DNA of 14,223 bases from a virus. The DNA lies in UHGV virus genome UHGV-0138819, one strand, 5' to 3'. Below are positions 188 through 13,681 of this stretch, one piece after another. The translations under genes and the position numbers were made by a program. A model generated the notes under the pieces. The model was not told the origin of the DNA. It made no database searches and was given only the letters and a program-made list of their open reading frames with translations. Every line of letters starts with the position of its first letter. Position 1 is the stretch's first letter.

Positions 188-258
188 GACTCGGGGTGCC
201 CTTCTGCGTGAAGGCTGAGAAATACCCGTATCACCTGATCTGGATAATGCCAGCGTAG
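188..258 (+). repeat. attL: native 5' portion of the thiM TPP riboswitch aptamer; left copy of the 71-bp imperfect direct repeat
   Basis: 188-258 equals 13557-13627 except at 206, 207 and 232. The left copy carries the bases I recall for the canonical E. coli thi-box (CUUCUGCGUGAAGG, GUAUCACC). Homology ends abruptly after 258. Confidence 0.8.
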
Positions 259-319
259 TCTTGGCGATTATCCAAGATATAAATCAAAGACTTGCACGGT
301 TTTTTCTCTTCATTTTGTT

Positions 320-1702
320 ATGTTGTCACTCAGAGAGACAAACAAAATGGCACACACACCGATCAATCACACCATCATCCGTAACGGGATCTACTACGTC
401 AGCTTTCGCCTGTCGGGTCATAAATATTTCCGTCGGTCGTTAGAGACAGATAGCCACAGCCACGCGCAACTCTTGATGTCATTTGCATCTCCAGCCATTC
501 CATTAGTCAAACGTGGAACCATTCACCCGGATCAGTTTGGTCAACGTCTTTCTGATTTCAGCAACCGCTTAAAGCAACAGAATGAACACTGGCTGGTTCA
601 ACAATTTCTCAGTGATGAACGGCGCAATCTTCAGCCGATAGTTGTTCAGGAATACCGGGAGACTGTTACACCTTCAGAAGATGAGGAAGAACAAACTGAA
701 GCACAGTCAAAGGATGTGTTAACACTGGCTGGCGCTTGGAATATGTACAAAAAGGAGAAAGCCCAAAACTGGACGAAGGCAATTTCACAGGCCAATGAGC
801 GCTTTATGGAAGTCATGTTCATTGTCCTCGGTGCATCAACAGACGTAACGACGATAACCAAGCAGGACATCAAGCAGGTGATGGAAGTTGTTGAAAACTT
901 ACCAAAGCGTGTTGTACAGCCTTATCGGTCGATGACGGTTCAGCAACTGATCGAGTGTGATGATGTGCCACCTGAAGATTTGGTTGGCGCTGAGTCTATC
1001 CACAAGCATTTGAAGATTTACAAATCGCTCTTCAAAACCTTCCTGACTGATAATAAAGATATTCTGGAGAAGTCTCCGACAGATGGAGTAGTCGCCGCAC
1101 CGTCAAAAGCGAGGTTTGGTGCATACAGTGCGGCAGAAATGAGAAAGTTTGTGGGGTGGGCGCTCAAGCAGCCTGATGGCTGGCAGAAATGGATCACCTT
1201 GTTGTTGGCGTATACGGGAGCCAGAAGAGGGGAGATCGCCAAGCTGGAGAAATCACAGATCAAATTTGATGAAGATAGCCAGCGGCACTATCTCCTGATA
1301 GCGGAAGGAGGGCAGGGGAAAACCGAGAATGCTACAAGGCAGGTGGCTATCCATCCCAAACTGATCGAGTGGGGTTTTCTTGATTTTGTAAACCGCCAAT
1401 GGAAAGAGAAAATCTTCTCGCCTGTGTCAGGTAAGAACATGCCAAAAATCGGCAAAGTCTTGGCTGATGTCCGTGATCAGCTTGGTATTCCGTACCTTGA
1501 TGATTATGGGCAGCGGCGATTAGTGCATAGTTTCCGGCATACCATGATTTCAACCTGTTTAGCTGGTTGGGTTGGGAACTTAGCGCACTTGCAACAGGTG
1601 GTTGGGCACGAGAAAAGCGGGTCAGGGATCACTCGGCGCTATCTTCATACGTTCCCGCTTTCCACTGTTTGTTATGTGATTGATGGCTTGGGTTGGTTGT
1701 AG
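320..1702 (+). CDS. int: Tyrosine site-specific integrase
   Basis: 460-aa ORF. C-terminal catalytic motifs are visible: TGARRGE (Arg), HSFRHT (His-x-x-Arg), VGHE, RRYLH (Tyr nucleophile). Alternative start at ATG 347 with a purine-rich AGAGAG upstream. Confidence 0.85.
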   Translation: MLSLRETNKMAHTPINHTIIRNGIYYVSFRLSGHKYFRRSLETDSHSHAQLLMSFASPAIPLVKRGTIHPDQFGQRLSDFSNRLKQQNEHWLVQQFLSDERRNLQPIVVQEYRETVTPSEDEEEQTEAQSKDVLTLAGAWNMYKKEKAQNWTKAISQANERFMEVMFIVLGASTDVTTITKQDIKQVMEVVENLPKRVVQPYRSMTVQQLIECDDVPPEDLVGAESIHKHLKIYKSLFKTFLTDNKDILEKSPTDGVVAAPSKARFGAYSAAEMRKFVGWALKQPDGWQKWITLLLAYTGARRGEIAKLEKSQIKFDEDSQRHYLLIAEGGQGKTENATRQVAIHPKLIEWGFLDFVNRQWKEKIFSPVSGKNMPKIGKVLADVRDQLGIPYLDDYGQRRLVHSFRHTMISTCLAGWVGNLAHLQQVVGHEKSGSGITRRYLHTFPLSTVCYVIDGLGWL

Positions 1703-1755
1703 AAGCAGAGTGATGGTTAAGTGTGAAGTGTATCAAAAAATCAGTAAGATTCGTC

Positions 1756-1785
1756 TTGAAAGTACATTTTGGATAACCATATAAA
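1756..1785 (+). promoter_or_regulatory. Candidate sigma70 promoter for the cargo genes (TTGAAA, 18-bp spacer, TATAAA)
   Basis: -35 TTGAAA at 1756-1761 and -10 TATAAA at 1780-1785, about 35 bp upstream of the ATG at 1820. Sequence-only prediction. Confidence 0.3.
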
Positions 1786-1819
1786 GCTTAAGTTAATTCC
1801 AACCAGATGAGGATGAGTA

Positions 1820-2077
1820 ATGGCAAGATGTACAGATCAGCACCGCTATTGGGATTTTTTCGAACACTTACCCGACGACCAAGGTGGTATTGGCAGACAT
1901 AAATGTTGCGGTTGTGCTTACGAAAAAGGTTATCAAGCAGGATTAATACGATCCGAAATTTTGAACATTGATCTTGATTCCTTACATGAAAGCCAAGCAG
2001 GCACTGTCCGTCATAAGAGTCCACATGCAGCCTATGCTCAAGGATATTTAGATGGTATTACAGCATCTTATCGGTAA
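1820..2077 (+). CDS. Hypothetical small Cys/His-rich protein (85 aa)
   Basis: ORF with AGGA 6 nt upstream of the ATG. Contains HKCCGC and two AYxxGY repeats. No family recognised. Confidence 0.45.
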   Translation: MARCTDQHRYWDFFEHLPDDQGGIGRHKCCGCAYEKGYQAGLIRSEILNIDLDSLHESQAGTVRHKSPHAAYAQGYLDGITASYR

Positions 2078-2109
2078 TAGCCGCCTAAAAGACAGGAGAT
2101 ACGCTATTT

Positions 2110-2541
2110 ATGTCTGGAATGTTAGCAAGCACAGCGGCCGCTGTAGGAATAATTGATAAAGCTGTAGGAATTGCAAAGAAACTTGCTGATGATGGCGGTG
2201 AACTCGATAAGGCGACGCTTAAACTTGAGCTTGCAAACCTCATGACAGAGCTTGCCAGTGTTAAAATGGAAGTTATCACCACCCAGGCGCTACTTTTTGA
2301 AGCGGAACAGAAGAACAAGCAACTTGAAAACCAATTGAAAGATAAGGAATCATTTGTTTTCAATGCCCCTCTTTATTGGAAAAATGGTGACCAAGTTCCG
2401 TTTTGCCCAAAATGTTATGAGGGTGAAGATAAGAAAGTTCATTTACGCTTAATTGTTCACAATGGTACACCGCAACTAGGACTTCCTCCTGAAAACAAAT
2501 GGGCGTGTATGCATTGTCGTTTTTCGCACTCGAACATTTAG
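2110..2541 (+). CDS. Hypothetical protein, N-terminal coiled coil plus C-terminal Cys4 zinc-ribbon-like motif (143 aa)
   Basis: AGGAGA 10 nt upstream of the ATG. C-terminus has CPKC ...(~30 aa)... CMHC. Heptad-like N-terminal segment. Confidence 0.55.
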   Translation: MSGMLASTAAAVGIIDKAVGIAKKLADDGGELDKATLKLELANLMTELASVKMEVITTQALLFEAEQKNKQLENQLKDKESFVFNAPLYWKNGDQVPFCPKCYEGEDKKVHLRLIVHNGTPQLGLPPENKWACMHCRFSHSNI

Positions 2542-2549
2542 TAAATCAA

Positions 2550-2759
2550 TCATTTTTCGTTTTCAGAAGAGTTAAACGTCTTAGAATAGGGGCAGGATTG
2601 AGAGCGAGTCATCAGGGTAAACAGGTAAACGCTGTTTTCGTAAGTGCAAAGCCTCTTCCCGCCCTGCAACTCCTGTTCGTCGGGGTTGCTCATGGTGATT
2701 TTGCTTGCCGCAGCATTAAAAGCCAGCAACATACCGCAAATCAACAGAATACCTCTCAT
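2550..2759 (-). CDS. Hypothetical small secreted protein (69 aa) with N-terminal signal peptide
   Basis: Strong SD (AAGGGGGAGA) just upstream of the ATG on the minus strand. N-terminus MRGILLICGMLLAFNAAAS looks like a signal peptide. Convergent with the 2110-2541 gene. Confidence 0.5.
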   Translation of the reverse strand: MRGILLICGMLLAFNAAASKITMSNPDEQELQGGKRLCTYENSVYLFTLMTRSQSCPYSKTFNSSENEK

Positions 2760-2831
2760 ATCTCCCCCTTGAATGAACTGCCCTCTTCAATGCTAAATTG
2801 CATCCATCGTTCAACGATTATAGTAACAAAG

Positions 2832-2872
2832 TTGATCAATTTTACCGATCGATTTCGTAATTTCGATCGATT
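2832..2872. promoter_or_regulatory. Three GATC sites and two copies of CGATCGATT in the divergent intergenic region
   Basis: GATC at 2834-2837, 2847-2850 and 2865-2868. CGATCGATT at 2846-2854 and 2864-2872. Lies between the minus-strand gene start (2759) and the plus-strand gene start (~2928). Confidence 0.35.
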
Positions 2873-2927
2873 AAAATAATTAAAAATGTTAAGGCACATG
2901 TCGATGGTGTACTTAATCTATTCATCT

Positions 2928-3692
2928 ATGGAGGCTGTTTTGAAAAAGATTCTTGCATTACCTCTTATGTTCTTTTCCTTCTCGTCCTTCTCTGAAGGCG
3001 TTTCGTCTACAGATGTACAACCATACCCTGAGTACCTGGCGGCCTATGTAAAAACGTTGATTGCTGCTGGATGTGAAGAAACATTGAAAGGCGGTTCTGA
3101 GGACGTATTGATCAAACGGGCAACGGAGGGAATGAAGAAGGGCACGACGGGTTACGATAATGTACACAATGCTATCGTGTTGGGGGCTGGTTTCGGTAAT
3201 GGACTGAAGGAAAAAGGAAAACTTATCACAAAAGAAAAAATCGCGATTGATAGTTGTGGTGGTGCAGCGGCCTATACCATGATGCAAAAAGAATTTATAA
3301 AAACGGTCGTTGCTAGTATGACTAATCCGGAACAATCGCAGGTTGCCGATAGTAAACCCAAAGTGCCAGCTTCTGATGATGCAATTTACCGTACAAAAGC
3401 ACTAGCTCTGGCTGAACTTTATAAAGCTAACGAGGTTGCAGCCGATGACAAAATTGGTGGTCGTAAGGTGGAAGTAACCGGAACTGTACAGGACATAACA
3501 AAAAATTTCACGGATGATGTAGTTCTTAAACTTGAAAGCGGTAATCGCTTCATGCCAGTCAGTCTGAGTATGTCTGATTCAGAAAAGGCGAAAGCGTCGA
3601 AATTGGAAAAGGGCCAGAAGATCACCGTGACTTGCGAAAAGATGCAGTTTTTCATCGGTGCACCGTCTGGCGGAAACTGCACCTTTAACTAA
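2928..3692 (+). CDS. Hypothetical secreted protein (~255 aa) with signal peptide and a possible OB-fold-like C-terminal domain
   Basis: Long ORF ending TAA 3690-3692. N-terminus MEAVLKKILALPLMFFSFSSFSEG looks like a signal peptide. Start ambiguous: ATG 2886, 2898, 2928, or TTG 2940 preceded by GGAGG at 2930-2934. The OB-fold resemblance is my guess. Confidence 0.6.
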   Translation: MEAVLKKILALPLMFFSFSSFSEGVSSTDVQPYPEYLAAYVKTLIAAGCEETLKGGSEDVLIKRATEGMKKGTTGYDNVHNAIVLGAGFGNGLKEKGKLITKEKIAIDSCGGAAAYTMMQKEFIKTVVASMTNPEQSQVADSKPKVPASDDAIYRTKALALAELYKANEVAADDKIGGRKVEVTGTVQDITKNFTDDVVLKLESGNRFMPVSLSMSDSEKAKASKLEKGQKITVTCEKMQFFIGAPSGGNCTFN

Positions 3693-3706
3693 TCTGTCAT
3701 ACGGTC

Positions 3707-3727
3707 TGCCGGGTAAAATTCCCGGCA
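3707..3727 (+). other. Hairpin just downstream of the cargo CDS (7-bp stem TGCCGGG/CCCGGCA, 7-nt loop), no U-tract
   Basis: Inverted repeat seen directly. Not followed by a T-run, so terminator function is uncertain. Confidence 0.3.
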
Positions 3728-4986
3728 ACTCATCTACCCCACCTCATGGATGTCCCTGCTATTTGACGATCCAGCTTACATGCTCTTGCTGAAAATATCT
3801 TACGGCTCTCTGGGCCAGGTGCCTGACGTGACAGACGATCCCTCAATAATTTCTTATCTTCTTGCTGAAATATCGCAGAGCCGACAGGCCCAGTAACGTA
3901 TTTCACCACTTCATCCCGTAGAGCATCACAGCAGGGAAAACTTGCCGCAATAGGGCATTCTACTGTTCGTTTTCTGGTCTATTTAACATAATGGTTCTTA
4001 TAAGTACTTGACTGGAATGGTCAGGTATTACTTTTCGGAACGTTGACGCGAAGCTGGGTACACAACAGCGATTTCACCAACAGAAGGAAAGCATTCAGGA
4101 GGATTCGAGGTGAGTTCTCTTGTTCAAGGATTTTGGATGAGTTTGCCTGGTCACCACACAATTTCAGGTTTCAGACCTTTGAGGCTGCCAGTGTGTCAAA
4201 CGCCATAAAAGCACTTTTTTCTGTTTACCAGCAGACACAAAGCCACTACACCGACGTTACCACAACGGGCTGAAGGTCTGCCATCACCTGGTGATATTCA
4301 CGAGCCTGACCGCCACTGTTTCGTACCATTTCCCAAAACAATGTAAACAGCCAACCCACCAATCCCTTCTACGCTCCACCAGAAGCGCTACAGTGCGTTA
4401 TCCCCCCAGATGTAAACTGACGTACCGATAATCCACGACATCCCACAGCGCGATACAGGAACCACCAGAGGACATCTGTTTTAGTTTTAATGTGTCTTTT
4501 TTATTTTTTGTAAAAAGATGGTTCAGAAAGTGGGTTGTGTTTAGCACCCATTCAATTGGCGGATTCGCCTAGGCCGCGCCATTACTGGCTTCGCTGCATG
4601 CACCACACCATAACGCCCATAGGTACAAACTTGTGATTTGTACGTTTAGTGACCACTTTAGCATGATTAACTACGGATTATAGGCTATTTGAGGTGTATT
4701 TAATCTACTTTGTTCGCAGGATAGCCAATGATAAAGATCATCCACCAAATTTTCACAGAAAACTAGTATAGGGTTGCCAATCTTCAGCCAGCGCGGAGAA
4801 TGGTCGGTATTTTCAGATGAAAGCGGGGGAGGGAGATGATCAATTCTCGGAGCGGATCAGGTGCCTGGACCGCCTCAGGTGTTGCCGTCGATTGTGCCAT
4901 TGAAGCATGACGCGGACATATCAAACCAGAAGTTTTCATCGGTACGTTGGTCGCTTGGATGACTTGGAAAATTCTCACCCGGTGAT

Positions 4987-5075
4987 ACCTGCACGATTTT
5001 CGTGTACCCACCCCCTCGATTTTCGAGCACCTACCTGCACGATTTTCGAGTAGGGGGTAGTCGATTTTCGAGCAC
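4987..5075. repeat. Iteron-like array: four CGATTTTCG-centred repeats at 22-23 bp spacing, followed by an AT-rich tract; candidate replication origin or protein-binding array
   Basis: CGATTTTCG at 4994, 5017, 5040 and 5062. ACCTGCACGATTTTCG is exact at 4987-5002 and 5033-5048. CGATTTTCGAGCAC is exact at 5017-5030 and 5062-5075. AATAATAATAAATAACAAT follows at 5076-5094. Confidence 0.55.
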
Positions 5076-5649
5076 AATAATAATAAATAACAATCTCCAT
5101 AAAAGAACTGATAAGAAAAGTACCTCCAGGTCGAGAGCACGGAATGACGGTTGGTCATTCTGTTAGTTTTAATAGTGATGCTTCTGCATCGCTCCGCTCT
5201 GCAATGGCTGGTCAGCCACTTCAGATATGTTTGTGGTAAGAAGCTCACCTTTGCTGACGTGAAACAGCCGCGCCATCTCGTGACCTTCTAACCCTCGTTA
5301 ACACATCGCTACGCTCTGTGACTCGGGTAACCCGACAGGCTACGCCAGAGAGCTACGCTCTCACTCTGTGTGGAAGCTGCGAACTTGTTCGCCATATGTG
5401 GATCGGAGCACGGCGGAGAGGACTGCTTTGCATCTGTCCGGTTCACTCCGGGGCGGCGCGGGTTGTCTAACTGACTTCCTCAGCGCCTCTCTACGGCGTT
5501 TAAATGGTGTGGGTAACACGATGGTACTGCTATAACGACGAGTCCCCGCAGAACGCGTCACAGAACGATCTAGCACTATTGACAAAGATTTTTTAAACTT
5601 GTAATGTTATGGTGATTATTATGCATTATAAAATGCTACATGATAATGA

Positions 5650-5678
5650 TTGCTATTTACAAACAAATCTGATACAAT
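5650..5678 (+). promoter_or_regulatory. Candidate sigma70 promoter for the 5824-10406 operon (TTGCTA, 17-bp spacer, TACAAT)
   Basis: -35 TTGCTA at 5650-5655 and -10 TACAAT at 5673-5678 in an AT-rich region about 145 bp upstream of the first operon ATG. Confidence 0.4.
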
Positions 5679-5823
5679 AGATTTTAGTAGGGTAATGATT
5701 TACCTACGAATCCTCGAATAATTCTGCCGTCATCACGACATTCCTTGTCAACCTCACGGCAATACAAAATGGGTTACAAATAGAACCTCCGCGAATAATT
5801 CTTTTAACAGAACGGAGAACCCA

Positions 5824-6270
5824 ATGAATAAACCAAAATCCCAACGTCTCGACCTGACCACTATGACAGGCGAGCAGATCGCTGATCTCATCCTGAACGG
5901 CAAATACACCAAATCAGCTTTGTGGGCCTTCATTAGTAGAAACGGCGGGGCAGACGCTGTACATGCTCGACTTCCTCAGATCGCCGTCTGCCTGCAAATC
6001 CTGAAGCAGGCGCGGAAGAAAGCGAAGCAGGCACGAGTGGTTAAGACGGTGCTGAAGCCTCTGAGCAATAAATATGCTGAGGGTAATTCCTTAACGCAAA
6101 TCCTGAATCCTGTGTTACAGGGCTACCGCGAGCTATATAGAGAAAAACTGAATCTGGACCTGACACCAGAACAGGTGATCTTGCTCTTGATCGCCACTGA
6201 TGGTGTGGAACGTCTGGAATCCTACGGTTACACCTGTGCGGGTGACTTCCCGACCGCAACCGCAGTCTAA
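5824..6270 (+). CDS. Hypothetical protein (148 aa), first gene of the rightward operon
   Basis: GGAGA 8 nt upstream of the ATG. No family recognised. Confidence 0.6.
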   Translation: MNKPKSQRLDLTTMTGEQIADLILNGKYTKSALWAFISRNGGADAVHARLPQIAVCLQILKQARKKAKQARVVKTVLKPLSNKYAEGNSLTQILNPVLQGYRELYREKLNLDLTPEQVILLLIATDGVERLESYGYTCAGDFPTATAV

Positions 6271-6357
6271 CAACACTGAACAAAACCTGAGCCGGTTCGC
6301 CTTTGGGCGACCACTGGCGGGAGGTCTTTTGTACCTAAAACGAGGAGGACAACTTGA

Positions 6358-6561
6358 ATGAACATCAAATTTCAACAGCACGTTTATCAGGCTCTACTAG
6401 CTGAGGCCAAAAGGCAGGACAAGCCCCTGGCACGGCTCTGTAATGAAATCTTGGAGACTGCCGCGAACATTTTCGACAACACACCAGACATCAAACCAGC
6501 ATTAGCCAGCAAGGCGACACTTTACGGAGAACAGAATGAGCAAACAGAACCGGGACAGTAA
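6358..6561 (+). CDS. Small putative ribbon-helix-helix (Arc/MetJ/CopG-like) DNA-binding protein (67 aa)
   Basis: AGGAGGA upstream of the ATG. N-terminal strand-like MNIKFQQ followed by two predicted helices (QALLAEAKRQ, PLARLCNEILETA). RHH assignment is by pattern only. Confidence 0.55.
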   Translation: MNIKFQQHVYQALLAEAKRQDKPLARLCNEILETAANIFDNTPDIKPALASKATLYGEQNEQTEPGQ

Positions 6562-7282
6562 GGATTTTGTAAAACTTGAATACAGCATTCTCGACCTTAC
6601 CGAGTACAACGGCCTGACCATTAATGGCAACATGAAAATTTTGCTATCTCTGGTTTACAGCTATGACAAAACAGGCAGAACTTATTACGAGTCTGTTGGC
6701 ATGATTGGTAAACGTTGCGGCTGCAAGCCCGAAGCCGTTCGTAATTTCAGGAACAAGCTTCGTGAAGCGGGAATGATCACTTTTGAGGAAGAGCAGGGGA
6801 GAACACACAAAATTTCTCCGGTCGAACTCGATCCATCGTTGATGGTTTTTCTTGACGATCATAATTCCACGCAGGTGAGTAATAGAAAAGTGGAAACCGA
6901 GGAGAGCGGTAAGAATGAGCAGAAACGTGATGTGGAATCTTTCGTGGTGGAACCTGCCGCGCCTGTTGCTGGAAAACCAGACGGCCTACCTGTTGTGGAT
7001 ATTCCTGTCGATGCTGATGTACCTGCCAATGATGATGCGGTGAACGCTTCTGATAGGTATACCGATGAACAATTAGGCACCAAGCTGAGGCGATGGCGCA
7101 ATTGGGGACTGGATGAAGAAGCAAAAGCGTTTTGTCTCTCTCATGGTATCAGCAGCGATGAGGACAGCATGAATCTGTTTATTCAAAATTATCATGTACC
7201 CGCACCGGAGTCAGTAGAACAACAGGTTAACGCCCCAGCAGATGAGCTGCCGCTTGATTATGATGACTCGATCCCTTTCTGA
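6536..7282 (+). CDS. Hypothetical protein (248 aa) with a putative winged-helix DNA-binding segment and acidic C-terminal region; candidate replication initiator or regulator
   Basis: GGAGA 5 nt upstream of the ATG. Overlaps the previous ORF by 26 nt. Segment YESVGMIGKRCGCKPEAVRNFRNKLREAGMI resembles wH/HTH domains. C-terminal half is D/E-rich. Confidence 0.55.
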   Translation: MSKQNRDSKDFVKLEYSILDLTEYNGLTINGNMKILLSLVYSYDKTGRTYYESVGMIGKRCGCKPEAVRNFRNKLREAGMITFEEEQGRTHKISPVELDPSLMVFLDDHNSTQVSNRKVETEESGKNEQKRDVESFVVEPAAPVAGKPDGLPVVDIPVDADVPANDDAVNASDRYTDEQLGTKLRRWRNWGLDEEAKAFCLSHGISSDEDSMNLFIQNYHVPAPESVEQQVNAPADELPLDYDDSIPF

Positions 7283-7296
7283 TACTGGAGGAATAA

Positions 7297-7818
7297 TTGT
7301 GTGATGTTGCCAACAGCCTGACGGCTGAAACCCTTACGGTGCGAAGCACTTTACCAGAGGTAAACAAATCCGGTGCTGACGCCCCTGATTTGTCCCGTTT
7401 TTACAAGGCCCGCTCTCGTGATACCTCGTTGATCGAGACTGCTAAAAAAATGCTCGTTCACGGTTACACCCCAGGCAAAACGGCGCTGCTCCTACGCTTG
7501 CCGTATGACCTGGTAAAAGGCCTTTACGATAACTCGTGGAATCCTCGCTGTCGCAAGATAAGTAATACCAGTCAGTACGCTACTAAGCGAATGGCCCGAA
7601 TGTACTACGAATCCGGCGCAATGCTGGCAAAAATCTGTGCTGACCTTCAACTGCCTCTATTCACTGTGGTAACGCTGCTCAAGCGTGAAGGAATCACTGA
7701 AAAAGAAATGGCATCTCGAATGCCTGTTAGTGATGATCCGTTGTTCATTGAGTACCGGAAGACTATTTCACGCAAGCAGGCAGCGCCCCAACGCCGATCA
7801 CCACGACTGCATTATTAA
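7297..7818 (+). CDS. Hypothetical protein (173 aa), possible tandem HTH-like segments
   Basis: TTG start 5 nt after GGAGG (7287-7291). No family recognised. Confidence 0.5.
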   Translation: MCDVANSLTAETLTVRSTLPEVNKSGADAPDLSRFYKARSRDTSLIETAKKMLVHGYTPGKTALLLRLPYDLVKGLYDNSWNPRCRKISNTSQYATKRMARMYYESGAMLAKICADLQLPLFTVVTLLKREGITEKEMASRMPVSDDPLFIEYRKTISRKQAAPQRRSPRLHY

Positions 7819-7836
7819 TACCCCAGCCGGGGAAAC

Positions 7837-8265
7837 TTGACCCTATTTGAATATTTATCCTTTCTGCCGTTAGCGGTAGCTGTTCTCCAATGGCTTCGTG
7901 ACGGCCTGGACCTCTACAGGAAACATAACAATATGAATAACATTGAAGCAATCCGCGCCAGTATCCGGGAAGCAATGACCGCAGGAACAGACGAACCGGA
8001 AGATCTGAACAAATCCGCTGAAGAAGCATTGGCGGAGGCGGTGCAGAGTTACCTGTCCGCTTCGACTGCAACAGCCAGCGAGCCAGCCCCAAAAAGTGGT
8101 AAAACCATCAAGGAAAAAGGGATCGCTCTGTGCCACCAAGCCCAAGGTTATAGCGCTAATCTGCGTCCGGTAAGTCTCATGATGAAGGCAAGTCTTGATG
8201 AGCTAACACCTGAACAACGCGCCGCGCTTGAGCGTCTGGGTTACGATATCAATCAGGGGGTGTGA
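7837..8265 (+). CDS. Hypothetical protein (142 aa from TTG 7837, or 111 aa from ATG 7933)
   Basis: TTG 7837 preceded by GGGGA. In-frame ATG at 7933 preceded by AGGAAA. Its stop TGA (8263-8265) overlaps the next ATG (8265-8267). Confidence 0.5.
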   Translation: MTLFEYLSFLPLAVAVLQWLRDGLDLYRKHNNMNNIEAIRASIREAMTAGTDEPEDLNKSAEEALAEAVQSYLSASTATASEPAPKSGKTIKEKGIALCHQAQGYSANLRPVSLMMKASLDELTPEQRAALERLGYDINQGV

Positions 8266-10406
8266 TGTCTGGCACAAATAAGATTGTTACCAGCACCGTT
8301 AATGAAATCTCGTGGATCACAGACGATGCCTCATATCAAAAAGCCAAAAAGAAGATTATCTCGCTTAAGGCTGCTCATGAGAAACCAGCTAAAGCGCTTG
8401 AGAAGGCCCAGAAGCGGACCGTCCAGAGTGAAGGCAAAGCAGCACTAGCCGCAGCGAAAGCCCAGACAGCGAAGCTACGCCAGGCTGAACAATTGTCAAA
8501 ACAGCAACAGAAACAAGCTCAGATACAAGCCAAAATGGAACGGGATGCAGTCTCCCACGCTAATAAAATGACCTCATTACAGGCGCGTCAGTTATCCCAG
8601 CAGGAACAGGCCGCACGGCAGAATGCCAGACTAGCAGCGATATCTGACAAGGTGAGACAGGCGAGTCGCTCCCGTGCAATGACCTACAATCCCAACATGC
8701 CTGGAGTTCACTCCGATCCATCTCTGGTGGCACGTCAAAATGCAGCGATGAACCGTGGTCACGGCGCTGTTGCTGCTGACATCGCAGCCACCAAAAAGGC
8801 GATGGCCTTGGAGGAGAAGCGTCAGCGTGAGAAAGAGGCAGGCCTTAAGCGCGAGGTGACTTATTACAACAGTTTGCGCCGTAGCGCTCTGACTCTGGCA
8901 AACGTGAACGGCGCTGACGTTGCAACCCGGTACAAAGCCATCAGTGCAGCAAAAGAGGCACTTAAAGCCCAGAAAGAAGAGCGCTATACGGTTGAAGAGA
9001 CCCGCTTCGAAATGGCTCGTATCACCACCGAATTACGCAAGCAGGCTCGTCTGCAACAGCGTATGACCCGTGAGCAGAAAGCCGCAGGTGTTCGTGCTGG
9101 TCGTGTACGCACAGAAAGCCGTGGTGGTAGAGCTGGTCTTGCAGCTGCTGGTGTTATTGGTGGTGCGTCGTTAGTGGGTAGTATGGGCGTTTCTCGTGTC
9201 GGTCAGACCCTCCAGGGAAGCCTTGAGCGCTCTCGCGATGTGAAAAAACTCCAGCAGTACGGGATCAGCAACCTTGAGTTCGCTGCACTTCAGGATCTCT
9301 CGATGAGCCGTGTTGGTTACTCACTGAGTGCTGACAAGCTGGCTGACCTCAACAAGGACACAACCGAAAAGGCCGGGGAATTGTTAAACACCGGCTCTTT
9401 CAAACGTAACAAGAAAACTGGACAGGTGAATTTCAGCGGCGGTGGCGAGTTCGCAGATATCATCAACAATGTGCTGACCTCCACCAACGGTAACCAGAAG
9501 GTAGCACAGAAGGTGATCGGAGAACTGCAAAAGCTGGATTTTCCGACCTTCATCACTTACCTGAAACAGTTGCAGAAAACTTTCAAATGGACGGACAACC
9601 AGACCCGGCACCTGGCTGAGGCTGTGAATGATGGTTCGGTCTTCCTCGAAGTGTTCAATGATGAGGGGCAGGGACTTATCCAGCGTATGCATCAACTCTC
9701 TTCTGAAGGATGGACCCTATCTGATGCGCAGCAAGCCAACCTCGATAAACTGGCGGCGTTAGGTGCTGAGTACAACCGAGTGCAAACCAGCCTTGCAGAT
9801 CATTTCTCAGCCTCGTTTGTTGAAGGCCTGGGGCAGTACGCTGCCAATACTGAAACTCTACGTCAGAAGATGACTGGACTGATCCCAATTTCCGATGCCC
9901 TCGGCGTTGCCCTTGGTGAGCTAACCACCAACATTCTCTCCTTCTCTGGTCGAGTCGGTGAAGAACTTAAGAAAGGCGCGACATTGCCGGATGCGGTGTA
10001 TACGAGCGTGGTAGATGAATCTGCAAACGGTGCTGCCGATTGGATTAAGGAAAAGACAGGCTTTGATCCACGTAGCATCGGTCAGACGCTTAAGCAGATT
10101 TACCCGTGGCTGGATAGTTCAGCACCGAGCAATATTGGCTCAGGCACGGCGTATAACGATCCAGCGCTAGCGTTGAATGTTCCTAGCCTGAACTATCTGA
10201 CACCCCAGCAACCGACGTTTACGGTTCCGACAATTGACAGCATGACGCTGCGACAGCCGATTCCTGTCAGTGTTACCGGGCAAGCGAACATTAATCAGCA
10301 GATGGATGTGTTTGTCCATGACGATAAGATCGCAGGGCTGGTTGATACCAAGATAAGGGAGAACAACCACGCGCAGAATAACCTCATCCTTGGGATTGCA
10401 GACTAA
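8265..10406 (+). CDS. Large hypothetical protein (~713 aa): Ala/Lys/Gln-rich coiled-coil N-terminal ~300 aa, Gly-rich hydrophobic segment, unrecognised C-terminal region
   Basis: Uninterrupted 2.1 kb ORF with start overlapping the upstream stop (TGATG). Hydrophobic GLAAAGVIGGASLVGSMGV mid-protein. No Walker A, no relaxase HxH motif, no primase zinc-finger pattern seen. Confidence 0.7.
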   Translation: MSGTNKIVTSTVNEISWITDDASYQKAKKKIISLKAAHEKPAKALEKAQKRTVQSEGKAALAAAKAQTAKLRQAEQLSKQQQKQAQIQAKMERDAVSHANKMTSLQARQLSQQEQAARQNARLAAISDKVRQASRSRAMTYNPNMPGVHSDPSLVARQNAAMNRGHGAVAADIAATKKAMALEEKRQREKEAGLKREVTYYNSLRRSALTLANVNGADVATRYKAISAAKEALKAQKEERYTVEETRFEMARITTELRKQARLQQRMTREQKAAGVRAGRVRTESRGGRAGLAAAGVIGGASLVGSMGVSRVGQTLQGSLERSRDVKKLQQYGISNLEFAALQDLSMSRVGYSLSADKLADLNKDTTEKAGELLNTGSFKRNKKTGQVNFSGGGEFADIINNVLTSTNGNQKVAQKVIGELQKLDFPTFITYLKQLQKTFKWTDNQTRHLAEAVNDGSVFLEVFNDEGQGLIQRMHQLSSEGWTLSDAQQANLDKLAALGAEYNRVQTSLADHFSASFVEGLGQYAANTETLRQKMTGLIPISDALGVALGELTTNILSFSGRVGEELKKGATLPDAVYTSVVDESANGAADWIKEKTGFDPRSIGQTLKQIYPWLDSSAPSNIGSGTAYNDPALALNVPSLNYLTPQQPTFTVPTIDSMTLRQPIPVSVTGQANINQQMDVFVHDDKIAGLVDTKIRENNHAQNNLILGIAD

Positions 10407-10440
10407 AATCATCGTTCCGTCGAAAATGGCGCAGCAAATT

Positions 10441-10460
10441 GGCCCACACGAGAGAGGGCC
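10441..10460 (+). terminator. Weak terminator-like hairpin after the 714-aa gene
   Basis: GGCCC (10441-10445) pairs with GGGCC (10456-10460) around a 10-nt loop, followed by a T-rich stretch (GTTATTGTTTTTGTTGTTG). Confidence 0.25.
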
Positions 10461-10490
10461 GTTGAATTCGCCATGTTATTGTTTTTGTTG

Positions 10491-10520
10491 TTGCAAATGA
10501 TAATCATTCGTGTTAAAATA
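10491..10520 (+). promoter_or_regulatory. Fur-box-like palindrome (AATGAT-A-ATCATT) overlapping a candidate sigma70 promoter (TTGCAA, 18-bp spacer, TAAAAT)
   Basis: Perfect 6-1-6 inverted repeat at 10495-10507 inside 10493-10511, about 14/19 match to the Fur consensus GATAATGATAATCATTATC as I recall it. -35 TTGCAA 10491-10496, -10 TAAAAT 10515-10520. Confidence 0.35.
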
Positions 10521-10926
10521 ATATACAAGGTGAATTACAACAGCCAAATGTTTTCCCTTCTCCTTAGGAATCAAAGTGCGCTTTTCCCAGAGCGCCTTTT
10601 CTCATACAGCCAATATTCGCACCCTCTCACGGTAAGGTTAGGCCATTGCCGCTGGCTGTATCAGAAAAGATTTTCTCCGACCTTGGATCGGGGATTTGCC
10701 AAAGCCTTTCATCCTCGGAAGGCCGTCTTGCCAGACGAAAACTGGCATTGAGTGCGGCAGCGAAGATATGAGGTCTCCCGCTGCTGTGCTCCCTCATTCC
10801 TGAAGCGTGACCCGCCGATCATGCTTTCCAAATCTCTCCATCAGAAAATACCATCGTGAAGCTATTAGCAACGCATGTTGCTAACCCGTAAACGGGTGAA
10901 TTTCATCATCTCCGATGATCTACCAA

Positions 10927-10962
10927 CCGGGGCAGGCGTTTTCCTGCCTCCGGCTCTTTTTC
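10927..10962 (+). terminator. Terminator-like hairpin (CCGGGGCAGG / CCTGCC-T-CCGG) followed by CTCTTTTTCT
   Basis: About 10-bp GC-rich stem with one bulge, T-rich tract a few nt downstream. Confidence 0.4.
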
Positions 10963-10984
10963 TGTTGGGAATACAAATAAAAGA

Positions 10985-11010
10985 ATGCCGTCCGATGGAC
11001 GGTATTTTTT
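10985..11010. terminator. Rho-independent terminator, probably bidirectional
   Basis: Stem ATGCCGTCC / GGACGGTAT with loop GAT, then TTTTT on the plus strand. The plus-strand AAATAAAAG just upstream gives a U-rich tract on the minus strand. Confidence 0.6.
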
Positions 11011-11049
11011 CAACACAACCCGGCATATTCGCCGGATTATAAAAATTGC

Positions 11050-11412
11050 ATGGAGATACAACAAAATATGGCATTCGAACATGAAAGCAAAACCCCACAG
11101 GATGTATTGGTTTATACCGATAGCCCGATCTTTCATAAGCGCACCGTGATCTTTGATCTGGCTGCTGATGTGACTTGTGGTGATGTGATTAACCCGACCA
11201 CTGGCGCGGCATACGTTGCAGCCGATGCTGATAACTGTGCTGTAGCTCTGCAAAATCAAATCGCTGGTGATGCCCGTAGCCTGGTCATTTCAGACCGTGG
11301 CTGTGTGTTCAATCCATCTGGTCTGGTTGTAGCGGCTGCTGCAAAAGATGCTGCTTACGCTGCCCTTGTTAAGCAAGGCAACCGCATTGCTGACGCAAAC
11401 ACTGCAATCTAA
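11050..11412 (+). CDS. Putative phage head decoration-like protein (120 aa, or 114 aa from ATG 11068)
   Basis: Small Ala/Gly/Val/Asp-rich protein immediately upstream of a ~340-aa capsid-like ORF, the lambda D-E arrangement. Product call is inference from size, composition and gene order. GGAGA at 11052-11056 fits the 11068 start. Confidence 0.5.
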   Translation: MEIQQNMAFEHESKTPQDVLVYTDSPIFHKRTVIFDLAADVTCGDVINPTTGAAYVAADADNCAVALQNQIAGDARSLVISDRGCVFNPSGLVVAAAAKDAAYAALVKQGNRIADANTAI

Positions 11413-11430
11413 TCAAGGAGTGATAACAAT

Positions 11431-12447
11431 ATGAAATTAAGTGATTTTACTAACCTTTCCGGTCAGTTTGTGAAGCCAAGCGGCGAGGGGTTCCTTCTGT
11501 CCAGCCTGGGGATCTTTACCAGCCGTCCAAGTGATACGCAAATCATCGCGCTCGACACACTGGAAGATGTGCAGCGTGAAGTGACCAAATCTGTTGCCCG
11601 TTATGGTTCTGAAATGTCCGGTCTAAACTTCCCTAAAGCGGCTAACGTGACTGTTCAGGCTCCACTGCATGTCTACAGCTCAACCATCACCAGCCAGGAT
11701 TGGCAGGGGAAACGTCAGCCGGGAACAAATCGCCAGATGACCGCTGAAGATGTAGTTGCTAATCATACCCTGAAGCACTACCTGCAAACCCGCCGTGATG
11801 TTGAATATGCCATGGCGCAGAGCCTGCTTCACAATACTGTAGAGGCGACACACCTTCGTGAAGGTCCTGATCTGAACTGGCAAACCTTCTGGGGTATTAA
11901 CCAGCCGTCTGCTGTGGTGAAAACTGGCATCAGTGCCAACGTTATTACTGAGATGCAGAACGCTGTCACGCTGCTGAAGAAAAATCTGGGTGGCTGGTCT
12001 TCCAGCATCAAGCAGGTTTATCTGCTAGCGAGTCCGAGTCTTTTCACCGCCATTCAAGGCAACCCAACCGCATATCAGGCGGCTCTGTTTGGTGCTACGT
12101 CCCGTGACATCATTTTCCCTGACACTTTGGGCGCATATGATCGATACAACATCGGGCGCGTAACTGTAGTTCAGGTTGACGATCCGCTATACGGCATTGC
12201 AGATGGTGAAGGCTACATGCTGGCGACGTTCTCCAATGTTGTTGAAGGCGACCTTTCACCTTATATGACTTACCAGACTCCGGCGAGCCGTCATGCTGAC
12301 GTTGCTAATGGTCCGGTTTATCCGTCTTACCATTACGTTCTGCGTGATAAGTTCATGAATTATGAGGTGGTCAGCGAGCTATCACAAATTCAGATCCCAA
12401 TGCGTCCAGACTTCGTTTTGAAAATTACGATGGATGACGCGGCGTAA
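11431..12447 (+). CDS. Putative major capsid protein (338 aa), possibly lambda gpE-like
   Basis: AGGAG upstream of the ATG. Length and position after the small decoration-like ORF fit a major capsid protein. Family assignment not verified. Confidence 0.6.
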   Translation: MKLSDFTNLSGQFVKPSGEGFLLSSLGIFTSRPSDTQIIALDTLEDVQREVTKSVARYGSEMSGLNFPKAANVTVQAPLHVYSSTITSQDWQGKRQPGTNRQMTAEDVVANHTLKHYLQTRRDVEYAMAQSLLHNTVEATHLREGPDLNWQTFWGINQPSAVVKTGISANVITEMQNAVTLLKKNLGGWSSSIKQVYLLASPSLFTAIQGNPTAYQAALFGATSRDIIFPDTLGAYDRYNIGRVTVVQVDDPLYGIADGEGYMLATFSNVVEGDLSPYMTYQTPASRHADVANGPVYPSYHYVLRDKFMNYEVVSELSQIQIPMRPDFVLKITMDDAA

Positions 12448-12509
12448 GACAGCGTATTTTGGGGGCGCATTGCCCCCGCTGCAGGCGAGCCAAAGGAAAG
12501 GAGATACAT

Positions 12510-12722
12510 ATGAAATTAGCTTTGATCGGTACTGGCAACATGCCGCTGATGCAGTGGATTCTAGATGGCAAGGGCGATGATGCGATTATCAACATGTCAG
12601 CGTTAGCACGCAGGCTTGAGTGTAGTCGTTCCAGCCTACTTGACCGCATCCATACGCATGGATTCGACAGCGCTATTAGGTACTACCTCAACGAACAGCG
12701 ACAACGAAAACTGAAAACATGA
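12510..12722 (+). CDS. Small HTH-like protein (70 aa); candidate DNA-binding, excisionase or packaging accessory
   Basis: Strong SD (AAGGAAAGGAGA) 6 nt before ATG 12510. The ORF track extends it to 12459, but the SD supports 12510. INMSALARRLECSRSSLLDRI resembles a helix-turn-helix. Confidence 0.55.
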   Translation: MKLALIGTGNMPLMQWILDGKGDDAIINMSALARRLECSRSSLLDRIHTHGFDSAIRYYLNEQRQRKLKT

Positions 12723-12723
12723 G

Positions 12724-12749
12724 AGCCGGGTTAATCCCGGCTTTTTTTA
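12724..12749. terminator. Strong rho-independent terminator shared by convergent genes
   Basis: AGCCGGG-TTAAT-CCCGGCT followed by 7 T (12743-12749), 1 nt after the plus-strand stop. The hairpin overlaps the last codons and stop of the minus-strand CDS. Confidence 0.8.
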
Positions 12750-13366
12750 TGTACTTTGCTGAAGTCAAAAAGATTGTCAAATTTAATGATATCTAATCCA
12801 GAGATAGCGTGATTAACATCTTTCATCATTGCGCCATGTTCATCATAAGCGTTACGTATTGCCATGAATTCTTCTGGTGTTATCTGTGCTTTAAGCAAAG
12901 CCTGCATGATGAGAGTCATCAGTTTTGAGATGGCTATTTGCGTATTACCAGAAGATCGAAGAAGGGCGTTGAATGGCTCCCAGGAAACCTTTTTAATCAG
13001 AACATTATAGTGACTTAACTTGATGAAAGAGCTACCAATGCGAAAGGTATTTTCCGTCATATCTTTCAAGGATTCTTGAATATGATAATAGCTTTCTTCG
13101 TCGGCTTTTTGTCCTGATTTCGCCAGTGTGTCGAGAAAAGTCATAATGCGGTTTAAGTCAAAGCGCATACGATTGTAACGGCTTCTGGTGCTATCAATTT
13201 CTTCTTTAAGAGCGATTGCTGAATCAATTGCCCGCTCCATTTTTCTCGTCTTCACAATCTCCTGAAGTTTAACCCCTCCGAAGATGACGCCGCCAACCAC
13301 ACTCAACGCTGTTACAGCATTCGAAGCGATAGAGATAATGTTATCCCATGCTTGTAAATCCATCAT
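12731..13366 (-). CDS. Hypothetical membrane-anchored protein (211 aa) with one N-terminal transmembrane helix; candidate exclusion or defence gene
   Basis: AAGAGG SD before the ATG on the minus strand. N-terminus IISIASNAVTALSVVGGVIFGGV looks like a TM helix. Appears AT-rich by eye. Convergent with the capsid operon, adjacent to attR. Confidence 0.65.
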   Translation of the reverse strand: MMDLQAWDNIISIASNAVTALSVVGGVIFGGVKLQEIVKTRKMERAIDSAIALKEEIDSTRSRYNRMRFDLNRIMTFLDTLAKSGQKADEESYYHIQESLKDMTENTFRIGSSFIKLSHYNVLIKKVSWEPFNALLRSSGNTQIAISKLMTLIMQALLKAQITPEEFMAIRNAYDEHGAMMKDVNHAISGLDIIKFDNLFDFSKVHKKSRD

Positions 13367-13405
13367 AACCTCTTTTTTTAATGCGGTAGTTGACGACTTA
13401 AGAGC

Positions 13406-13435
13406 ATTCTACATGGCACACATTGTGTCACTCAA
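13406..13435 (-). promoter_or_regulatory. Candidate sigma70 promoter for the 12731-13366 gene (minus strand: TTGAGT, 18-bp spacer, TAGAAT)
   Basis: Reverse complement of 13406-13411 is TAGAAT and of 13430-13435 is TTGAGT, about 35 nt upstream of the minus-strand ATG. Confidence 0.3.
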
Positions 13436-13556
13436 CCTGTCACACATAGACCAAAAGGGCCGCTTTTACCGTTTACAAGACTTCCCGCTGGCATTACTAT
13501 CCTGATCAGGGATTAATGAGGAGCATTAATCGCAAGCTTTTGATTTTATAGTACAT

Positions 13557-13627
13557 GACTCGGGGTGCCCTTCTTTGTGAAGGCTGAGAAATACCCGTAT
13601 TACCTGATCTGGATAATGCCAGCGTAG
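13557..13627 (+). repeat. attR: element-derived riboswitch-like 5' arm plus shared core; right copy of the 71-bp direct repeat
   Basis: Differs from 188-258 at three positions (TT for GC at 13575-13576, T for C at 13601). Canonical host sequence resumes after 13627 (GGAAGTCACGG...). Confidence 0.8.
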
Positions 13628-13681
13628 GGAAGTCACGGACCACCAGGTCATTGCTTCTTCACGTTATGGCAGGAGCAAACT
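13557..13681 (+). promoter_or_regulatory. TPP (thi-box) riboswitch in the thiM 5' leader, hybrid of element-derived 5' aptamer half and host 3' half plus expression platform
   Basis: GGGGTGCCCTTCT..GTGAAGGCTGAGAAATACCCGTAT.ACCTGATCTGGATAATGCCAGCGTAGGGAAGTCACGGACCACCAGGTCATTGCTTCTTCACGTTATGGCAGGAGCAAACTATG matches the E. coli thiM riboswitch as I recall it, apart from three substitutions in the 5' half. Confidence 0.85.

Follow-up and report, generated by a model that had tools for sequence, protein, structure and literature searches.

A 69-residue, putatively periplasmic protein carried as cargo by a satellite-like island of Escherichia coli and its possible role in phage exclusion

The stretch of DNA analysed here (the window) comprises 14,223 nucleotides and is catalogued as UHGV virus genome UHGV-0138819. 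It is a piece of E. coli chromosome with 100% identity to strains AREA_C483 and TC24, and it contains an integrated, satellite-like island of about 13 kb. The gene under study is located near the integrase of this island, on the minus strand at 2550..2759. It belongs to the family phrog_4641 and encodes a small protein predicted to be exported, for which a role in the exclusion of competing phages is considered below.

The small gene and its predicted product

The coding sequence (CDS) consists of 69 codons and a stop, begins with ATG and gives a product of 69 aa, MRGILLICGMLLAFNAAASKITMSNPDEQELQGGKRLCTYENSVYLFTLMTRSQSCPYSKTFNSSENEK. A first-pass annotation of the same DNA had proposed a 69-aa open reading frame (ORF) on the opposite strand, and its coordinates were exact. 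The identical ORF is a CDS of the Prokaryotic Genome Annotation Pipeline (PGAP), recorded in RefSeq as ‘hypothetical protein’ WP_060707037.1 of E. coli AREA_C483 (100% identity to the window). Comparison of the mature part with orthologues from Klebsiella, Enterobacter, Citrobacter, Cedecea and others gave a ratio of nonsynonymous to synonymous substitution rates (dN/dS) of 0.04-0.19, at dS of about 0.4-3. An overlapping ORF on the plus strand (2499-2879) covers the whole small gene and has no conservation elsewhere. Since purifying selection acts on the minus-strand frame and the rival plus-strand ORF is not conserved, ORF 2550-2759 is, on the pattern of substitutions, a genuine gene under selection. 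The strong Shine-Dalgarno (SD) sequence which the same annotation had mentioned is also present: AAGGGGGAG, read from the sequence on the minus strand (2762..2770), is located at 2770-2762, 2-4 nt 5' of the ATG, and is conserved among the closest orthologues and kept in the type-A orthologues. Downstream of the small gene, no intrinsic terminator was seen.

The presence of an N-terminal signal sequence, likewise proposed earlier, was supported by comparative evidence from 157 full-length relatives. The signal-peptide codons (aa 1-18, MRGILLICGMLLAFNAAA; 2706..2759, minus strand) specify R2, a hydrophobic segment I4-F14 with Kyte-Doolittle (KD) hydropathy of up to 3.1, and then A16-A17-A18, after which cleavage by signal peptidase I (SPase I) is predicted in front of S19. 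Similarly, K or R occurs in the first 6 residues of 151/157 relatives and a hydrophobic 9-mer with KD of at least 1.8 in 154/157, and Ala precedes the conserved mature start at position -1 in 143 and at position -3 in 127 of them. All the sequence features of a Sec/SPase I substrate, namely the charge of the n-region, an h-region of at least 8 residues and the small residues at -3 and -1, are found. The first 19 residues are interchanged between lineages in unrelated versions (for example MRGILLICGMLLAFNAAAS vs MKKILLFVVALLPLAAHAG), and the remaining 50 residues are 65-100% identical. Every N-terminal version keeps the basic n-region, the hydrophobic core and the Ala-x-Ala site. These 19 residues were of low confidence in the AlphaFold models.

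The identity of the product as a lipoprotein was examined and rejected. A lipobox-like pattern was found in just 4/157 relatives, and the test failed in the window protein, where LLIC-G is wrong at position -1. Cys8 sits inside the hydrophobic core, and most relatives have another residue in its place; it is the Ala-x-Ala site that is conserved instead. The protein is predicted to be a substrate of Sec and SPase I (AAA before S) and not a lipoprotein. Owing to the SPase I site and the lack of a lipobox, the cleaved product would be a free periplasmic protein and not a plug anchored in the outer membrane.

The mature part is encoded by codons 19-69 (2553..2705, minus strand) and was studied through alignments, ProtParam and AlphaFold. 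It extends from S19 to K69 and amounts to 51 aa, 5.9 kDa and an isoelectric point of about 6.1. Cys38 and Cys56 are near-invariant (at least 90% conserved), and two or more Cys residues are found in the mature part of 151/157 relatives. Tyr40, the motif C-P-Y-S/T-K-T-F and the acidic tail that follows it vary hardly, if at all, even among the most distant members. With a shallow alignment one of five AlphaFold models was good, and with a more diverse alignment of 42 sequences all five models converged at a predicted local distance difference test (pLDDT) score of 80-82, with 92-95 in the mature part. The predicted topology is a compact beta domain with strands at 20-24, 27-30, 36-41, 46-51 and 59-63 plus a short C-terminal helix. 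A soluble periplasmic mini-protein, probably disulfide-bonded, is predicted, and the Cys38/Cys56 pair is compatible with a periplasmic disulfide. No solved structure matched the predicted five-strand fold. A sequence search of PDB with the family profile gave chance matches alone (E>=0.6), and the top matches in BFVD (27-35% identity, template modelling score 0.56-0.69) were all uncharacterised members of the same family.

Relatives in islands and virulent phages

Among the family libraries the sole match of the small protein is phrog_4641 of PHROGs v4, to which no function is assigned (E=2.8e-9, residues 6-62 against profile positions 11-67 of 68). Scans of Pfam, NCBIfam and PADLOC gave no match. 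The PHROG scan at E<=1 returned phrog_4641 alone and no exclusion-annotated family, a result which includes no pairwise comparison with Cor or Llp. Out of 5.8 billion proteins searched, 161 relatives were obtained, nearly all of them 69 aa long, in Escherichia, Klebsiella, Enterobacter, Citrobacter, Cronobacter, Leclercia, Kluyvera and other genera. An exhaustive profile search of 1.84 billion representatives gave 75 clusters, essentially all of them stand-alone proteins of 60-90 aa. The sole multi-domain relative seen was a metagenomic protein of 310 aa (P0191) with two repeats resembling the mature domain (E=4.8e-4; pattern K-x-x-C-x-Y-x4-YLFT-x7-C-x-Y-S/T-K-W-F), which offered no functional clue. 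A word-indexed protein search seeded with the homologue of a Citrobacter phage returned one protein. Literature searches on the family accessions, phrog_4641, PF12869 together with exclusion, and Phapecoctavirus together with superinfection gave nothing relevant.

More distant relatives belong to virulent phages. A tblastn search of 50,697 phage genomes gave 137 records at 30-40% identity, and the carriers are mostly virulent myoviruses of ~150 kb of the Stephanstirmvirinae (phAPEC8, ESCO5 and others), together with related phages of Klebsiella and Citrobacter. Its position in these genomes is syntenic, with an RdgC-like gene on one side and the exonuclease/DNA polymerase genes on the other. 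An example sequence of phrog_4641 is gp142 of phAPEC8 (YP_007348490). The phage members share with the window protein the signal peptide, G-x-IT-L/M, C-x-Y, C-P-Y-T-K-T-F and the acidic tail. They differ in their setting, as they are placed among replication and recombination genes of virulent ~150 kb genomes, whereas the window copy resides on an integrated 13-kb island. In sequence, too, the window copy is far nearer to the large clade of chromosomal islands (65-100% identity) than to the phage members. The phage homologues have their own promoter, TTGACT-17/18-TATTAT/TAATAT, followed by a 5' hairpin. For example, L003 (3933-3985) and L004 (3929-3958) show a near-consensus sigma-70 site, TTGACT-17-TATTAT, with an extended -10 TG. 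The stable hairpin of phAPEC8 falls where the transcript is predicted to begin, immediately ahead of the SD, and it could at the same time terminate the upstream gene.

The family is confined to mobile elements and has no core-genome copy. In E. coli the small gene was found in 76/5,426 complete genomes, always as a single chromosomal copy. Sister islands share with the window the genes h148 and h173 and those for the 714-aa, decoration and capsid proteins, and they carry the small gene in the same cargo region. They occur in other genera and at different insertion sites (tRNA-Thr, tRNA-Gly), which makes three attachment (att) sites in all. The neighbours within the cargo region are variable and include GmrSD, DUF4145, DUF4062, resolvases, a small tyrosine-recombinase-like gene and other small secreted proteins. 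The small gene is dispensable cargo in the variable region of ~13-kb, integrase- and capsid-bearing, satellite-like islands of Enterobacterales.

The state of the copies varies. A Klebsiella island (L029) has two intact paralogues, at 6944-7153 and 8001-8210. On the other hand, the copy of E. coli KSC1031 (L030, 7001-7212) is frameshifted and unannotated and lies in a GmrSD-bearing island at the thiM site; its promoter has decayed, with the TATAAT box and all three GATC sites gone. It falls into a class of ~74% identity which comprises at least 21 listed E. coli genomes with identical match statistics, unannotated, of which L030 alone was translated. In a K. pneumoniae locus (L025, 10111-10344) there is a relic ORF in which the N-terminus of an integrase is fused with the mature portion of a second member of the family, adjoining a PAAR gene. 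This relic points to an older, decayed island at the same spot.

Control region, divergent neighbour and host island

The claim that the gene has its own promoter region was upheld in part. A consensus promoter scan, which needs at least 4/6 matches at -35, found two 9/12 sigma-70-like sites on the minus strand, and these are not above shuffles (4 found vs 1.5 +/- 1.4). What favours the claim is a candidate promoter with a perfect -10 TATAAT (2817..2822, minus strand), which the scanner did not call because its weak -35, GTAAAA, matches fewer than 4/6 positions. This TATAAT (2822-2817) is conserved in six orthologous loci (the window, L025, L006, L019, L016 and L009), and upstream of it is a cassette of GATC sites.

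The cassette (2834..2871) is located in a promoter region shared with a divergent gene. It has GATC at 2834, 2847 and 2865 and a 37-bp site resembling the OxyR consensus at 2835-2871. The conserved intergenic core is TTTAATCGATCGAAATTAnnAAATCGATCGGTAAAATTGATCAA, and the TATAAT follows on the side of the small gene. Across several genera, 8 intact loci retain the GATC cores amid varying flanks (ATCGATC, ATTGATC, ATAGATC), and all three are lost in two decayed copies, L023 and L030. The 37-mer is the best match of the window to the OxyR consensus at 14/20, which equals the agn43 region of K-12 scored alike, the consensus itself being degenerate and AT-rich. The orthologous cassettes score 13-16/20, and a score of 14 occurs in composition-matched random sequence at P about 0.016.

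Phase-variation switches governed by Dam and OxyR are known from agn43/flu of the prophage CP4-44, from gtr of P22 and from mom of Mu. Like agn43 of K-12, the window locus has three GATC sites (spaced 13 + 18 bp here vs 19 + 13 bp in agn43) with an equal score of 14/20; both are located on mobile elements and, in the case of the window by prediction, control exported products. The arrangement is different in that the window sites lie upstream of or over the -35 of two divergent promoters, whereas those of agn43 lie downstream of the start site. In a locus of the window type the small gene and its neighbour would be transcribed divergently from the shared control region, and the three Dam sites within the OxyR-like site could render expression sensitive to methylation and possibly phase-variable. 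Such Dam-sensitive expression is a possibility for the window-type locus, although one on the doubtful side. Type-B alleles, with the signal peptide MKKILL...AHAG, have no cassette; they are co-transcribed behind a small recombinase-like gene or abut a 2.1-kb non-coding region.

The divergent gene (2940..3692, plus strand) encodes a secreted protein of 250 aa with an N-terminal Cys-containing domain and a C-terminal tRNA_anti-like oligonucleotide/oligosaccharide-binding (OB) fold (PF12869, E=7e-16; phrog_8545, E=5e-22). The label of phrog_8545 is ‘superinfection exclusion Sie-like’. This OB-fold family is limited to mobile elements of Enterobacterales (113 clusters) and has no solved homologue. 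Some sources call it an ‘OB-fold putative lipoprotein’, and the window copy is without a lipobox. Divergent pairing of the small gene with a secreted protein of 250-260 aa, 130-180 bp apart, was found in seven loci: the window, E. coli A11, K. pneumoniae, E. hormaechei, E. sichuanensis, Enterobacillus (where both genes have decayed) and an E. coli locus with a remnant of the small gene. The paired allele of K. pneumoniae is indexed in ~1,780 collection blocks and that of E. hormaechei in ~750. An obligatory two-gene system was considered and rejected, as the OB-fold neighbour is missing from most small-gene loci and from all the virulent phages and is therefore not required.

The host island is bounded by direct repeats (att) located inside the thiamine pyrophosphate (TPP) riboswitch upstream of thiM, between rcnR and thiM. 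The left repeat, of 71 bp, lies in a copy of the thiM riboswitch at 188..258 (plus strand; repeat search, 96% identity) and the right one at 13557-13627. The island spans 13,369 bp, with its body at 259-13556. PGAP calls the riboswitch at both ends, and the gathering score of Rfam is reached by the thiM-proximal TPP copy alone (13551-13647). Sister islands with other cargo (GmrSD) use the same thiM site.

A tyrosine integrase is encoded at 320..1702 (plus strand; PF00589, phrog_1, PGAP). The earlier annotation had likened the small gene to those next to integrases in prophages. It is indeed near int, at a distance of 850 bp with two small genes between. These encode an 85-aa Cys-rich protein (1820-2077, plus strand; phrog_3941, E=9e-25), which is integrase-adjacent in other islands too, and a 143-aa protein with a coiled coil and a zinc-ribbon-like part (2110-2541, plus strand; phrog_1244). 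The latter gene converges on the small gene; their stop codons are 8 bp apart, and there is no terminator. The element as a whole, however, is not a full prophage. It encodes a DnaD/O-like initiator, a 714-aa protein (8262-10406, plus strand) kept in all sister islands at 57-82% identity, and, according to Pfam and PHROG, a lambda-D-like decoration protein (11068-11412) and an E-like major capsid protein (11431-12447). The island ORFs scanned, those of 5824-13366 included, gave no detectable gene for a terminase, portal, connector, tail or lysis protein, and hence the element is regarded as satellite-like. For the 714-aa protein, Pfam and NCBIfam gave no match and PHROG weak ‘tape measure’ matches only, and a homologue is called ‘chemotaxis protein’ in one RefSeq record.

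The stretch 3693-5823 (2.1 kb) is free of annotated genes and has no ORF over 154 aa. It is 84-92% identical to sister islands at other chromosomal sites. The mismatches are spread evenly over the codon phases (49/58/45; 34/36/21), many indels occur and there is no Rfam match. The even spread and the many indels mark it as conserved non-coding DNA, for which an origin of replication (ori) or packaging (pac) region, a large RNA or a regulatory region are candidates.

The core set of phage-inducible chromosomal islands that form capsids (cfPICI) consists of the large terminase subunit (TerL), portal, head-tail adaptor/connector, small terminase subunit (TerS), an AlpA-type regulator and a primase-replicase (PMC10085698). 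The island has one trait of the cfPICI and of the phage-inducible chromosomal islands (PICI), namely an integrase together with its own capsid gene. Pfam and PHROG searches of the larger ORFs of the island found none of the core set, just the DnaD/O-like initiator, and the classification of the island as a cfPICI was rejected. With TerL, portal, connector and TerS not detected, the island belongs to none of the four described satellite families; it fits no definition of P4-like, PICI, cfPICI or PLE elements and may represent an undescribed family. Like the defence hotspots of phage satellites (P4-like, PICI, cfPICI), it has a variable cargo region on the integrase side, and the neighbours in the sister islands include GmrSD and DUF4145. 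Unlike them, it is without the TerL, portal and head-tail connector of cfPICI and the TerS of PICI.

Possible roles at the cell envelope

Phage-phage exclusion at the cell envelope is, on indirect evidence, the most plausible role of the small protein. More specifically, it may be a soluble periplasmic factor that interferes with the entry of competing phages, a proposal which is tentative and judged somewhat short of even. The Sec pre-protein would be cut by SPase I after Ala18, releasing the 51-residue protein into the periplasm, where it could act on incoming competitors by binding a component of their genome-delivery apparatus or an envelope protein which they need. The outcome would be a soluble, ‘spackle-like’ superinfection exclusion with no masking of an outer-membrane receptor. 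Competition between phages at the envelope is suggested by the defence-type neighbours, the promoter-equipped phage genes and the Sie-like-labelled partner. The integrase-proximal cargo region of satellites is the place of defence genes, and a promoter-equipped periplasmic protein of a virulent phage is classically an exclusion or lysis-control factor.

There are known exclusion proteins with which the small protein can be compared. T4 Sp (spackle) is small, has a cleavable signal peptide, resides in the periplasm and is made by a virulent phage from a host-type promoter; it is helical. The small protein would resemble Sp in size, in its cleavable signal peptide, in its predicted soluble periplasmic state and in the proposed logic of action. 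It differs in that there is no sequence or fold similarity and the predicted fold is all-beta. T4 Imm and Sp are listed as blockers of DNA injection, and Cor inactivates the receptor FhuA (PMC11436027). Llp of T5 and Cor of phi80 and N15 are likewise small, exported and phage-encoded, whereas they are lipoproteins anchored through an acylated Cys and the small protein has an SPase I site, no lipobox and, in the Pfam and PHROG scans, no homology to them.

Several observations weigh against the exclusion role. Searches of Pfam, PHROG, NCBIfam, PADLOC and structures linked it to no characterised exclusion protein, either in sequence or in fold. The company of defence genes is a weak argument, and the ‘Sie-like’ label is a database annotation of a neighbour that most of the loci and the virulent phages do not have. 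Selection is patchy, with about half of the E. coli copies probably frameshifted pseudogenes, like the translated copy L030, whose match class comprises at least 21 E. coli genomes. Moreover, a satellite must not exclude its own helper phage. As for the cassette, three GATC sites so clustered fall short of significance when the window is taken by itself (P about 0.45), and the argument from them rests on conservation across species; the 18-bp spacing of the ATCGAT repeat is also non-canonical and fits the OxyR consensus inexactly.

Alternatively, the small gene could be a ‘moron’ that benefits the host and has nothing to do with phages, acting in envelope physiology such as stress tolerance, resistance to serum or antimicrobials, adhesion or colonisation. 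The product is predicted to be exported, its expression appears independent of the replication and capsid module of the island, many other small secreted proteins are found nearby, and in its promoter cassette it is similar to phase-variable surface factors, agn43 for example. However, the family is also present in strictly virulent phages with a host-type promoter, where a long-term benefit to the host makes little sense, and it is found on mobile elements only, with no core-genome copy. It is the satellite cargo and the virulent-phage settings taken together that favour exclusion over a host-fitness role, and the moron reading is considered unlikely.

The occurrence of a small periplasmic protein in virulent phages would also agree with a regulator of lysis or cell-wall hydrolysis, which inhibits or times an endolysin, spanin or tail lysozyme or serves as an antiholin-like sensor of superinfection. 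T4-type phages are known to have periplasmic regulators of lysis and inhibitors of lysozyme. Yet the small protein does not resemble the Ivy, PliC/MliC or RI families, the scan of island ORFs detected no lysis genes, and the conserved cleavage site speaks against a membrane-tethered antiholin. This possibility is decidedly unlikely.

An orphan immunity protein against a toxin acting in the periplasm, such as an effector of the type VI secretion system (T6SS) or a bacteriocin, would likewise be expected to be periplasmic, small and disulfide-containing, as is predicted here. In Cedecea (L007) the copy is placed between two Hcp genes, and the Klebsiella relic adjoins a PAAR gene. Such a context is seen in 2 of ~25 loci only, though, and the Klebsiella relic represents a decayed island with an integrase fragment fused to it; the presence of the family in virulent phages is hard to explain in this way, and no cognate effector is adjacent in the window. 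Immunity to a toxin is accordingly very unlikely.

The first-pass annotation itself had suggested a Cor/Llp-like outer-membrane lipoprotein that plugs a receptor such as FhuA, and this analogy did not survive. Size, export, a conserved Cys pair and a position near the integrase of a phage-related element are in its favour, but lipidation, the defining trait, fails: lipobox-like patterns are confined to 4/157 relatives, it is the AXA site and not the signal-peptide Cys that is conserved, and no exclusion family of PHROG or Pfam matches. The plug model can hardly be maintained. Finally, a spurious or non-functional ORF, which the short length, the lack of an assigned function and the many pseudogene copies in E. 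coli might suggest, is refuted for the intact alleles by strong purifying selection, a 69-aa length held across genera, near-invariant motifs and a confidently predicted fold, and it may be dismissed.

The annotation of the gene as hypothetical and the existence of the family as an uncharacterised PHROG were already known. The assignment of export and cleavage, the exclusion of the lipoprotein model, the distribution over satellites and virulent phages, the pairing with an OB-fold gene and the GATC/OxyR-like cassette are new. In the broadest reading, the small protein would found, as its first characterised member, a new family of soluble periplasmic anti-phage mini-proteins of ~50 residues, common to virulent Stephanstirmvirinae and unclassified capsid-encoding satellites of Enterobacterales, with a Dam/OxyR-type phase-variable bidirectional promoter and an OB-fold partner in the satellites. 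As a whole, this full picture is rather unlikely.

Of all that phages and satellites carry as cargo, small exported proteins are understood least, and they mostly go unnoticed by defence-finder pipelines. The present one is invisible to PADLOC, Pfam and NCBIfam. Its family is compact and strongly conserved, and its localisation is easy to test. The carriers include clinically relevant Enterobacterales, with a wide spread in Klebsiella pneumoniae, and lytic phages of the type used in therapy. If periplasmic phage exclusion is the true role, the few exclusion mechanisms operating at the envelope would gain a new fold and perhaps a new target, and the prediction of host range for therapeutic phages would be affected. 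Satellites and virulent phages would then wield the same weapon. Likewise, if the cassette is functional, epigenetic phase variation would extend to the cargo of satellites.

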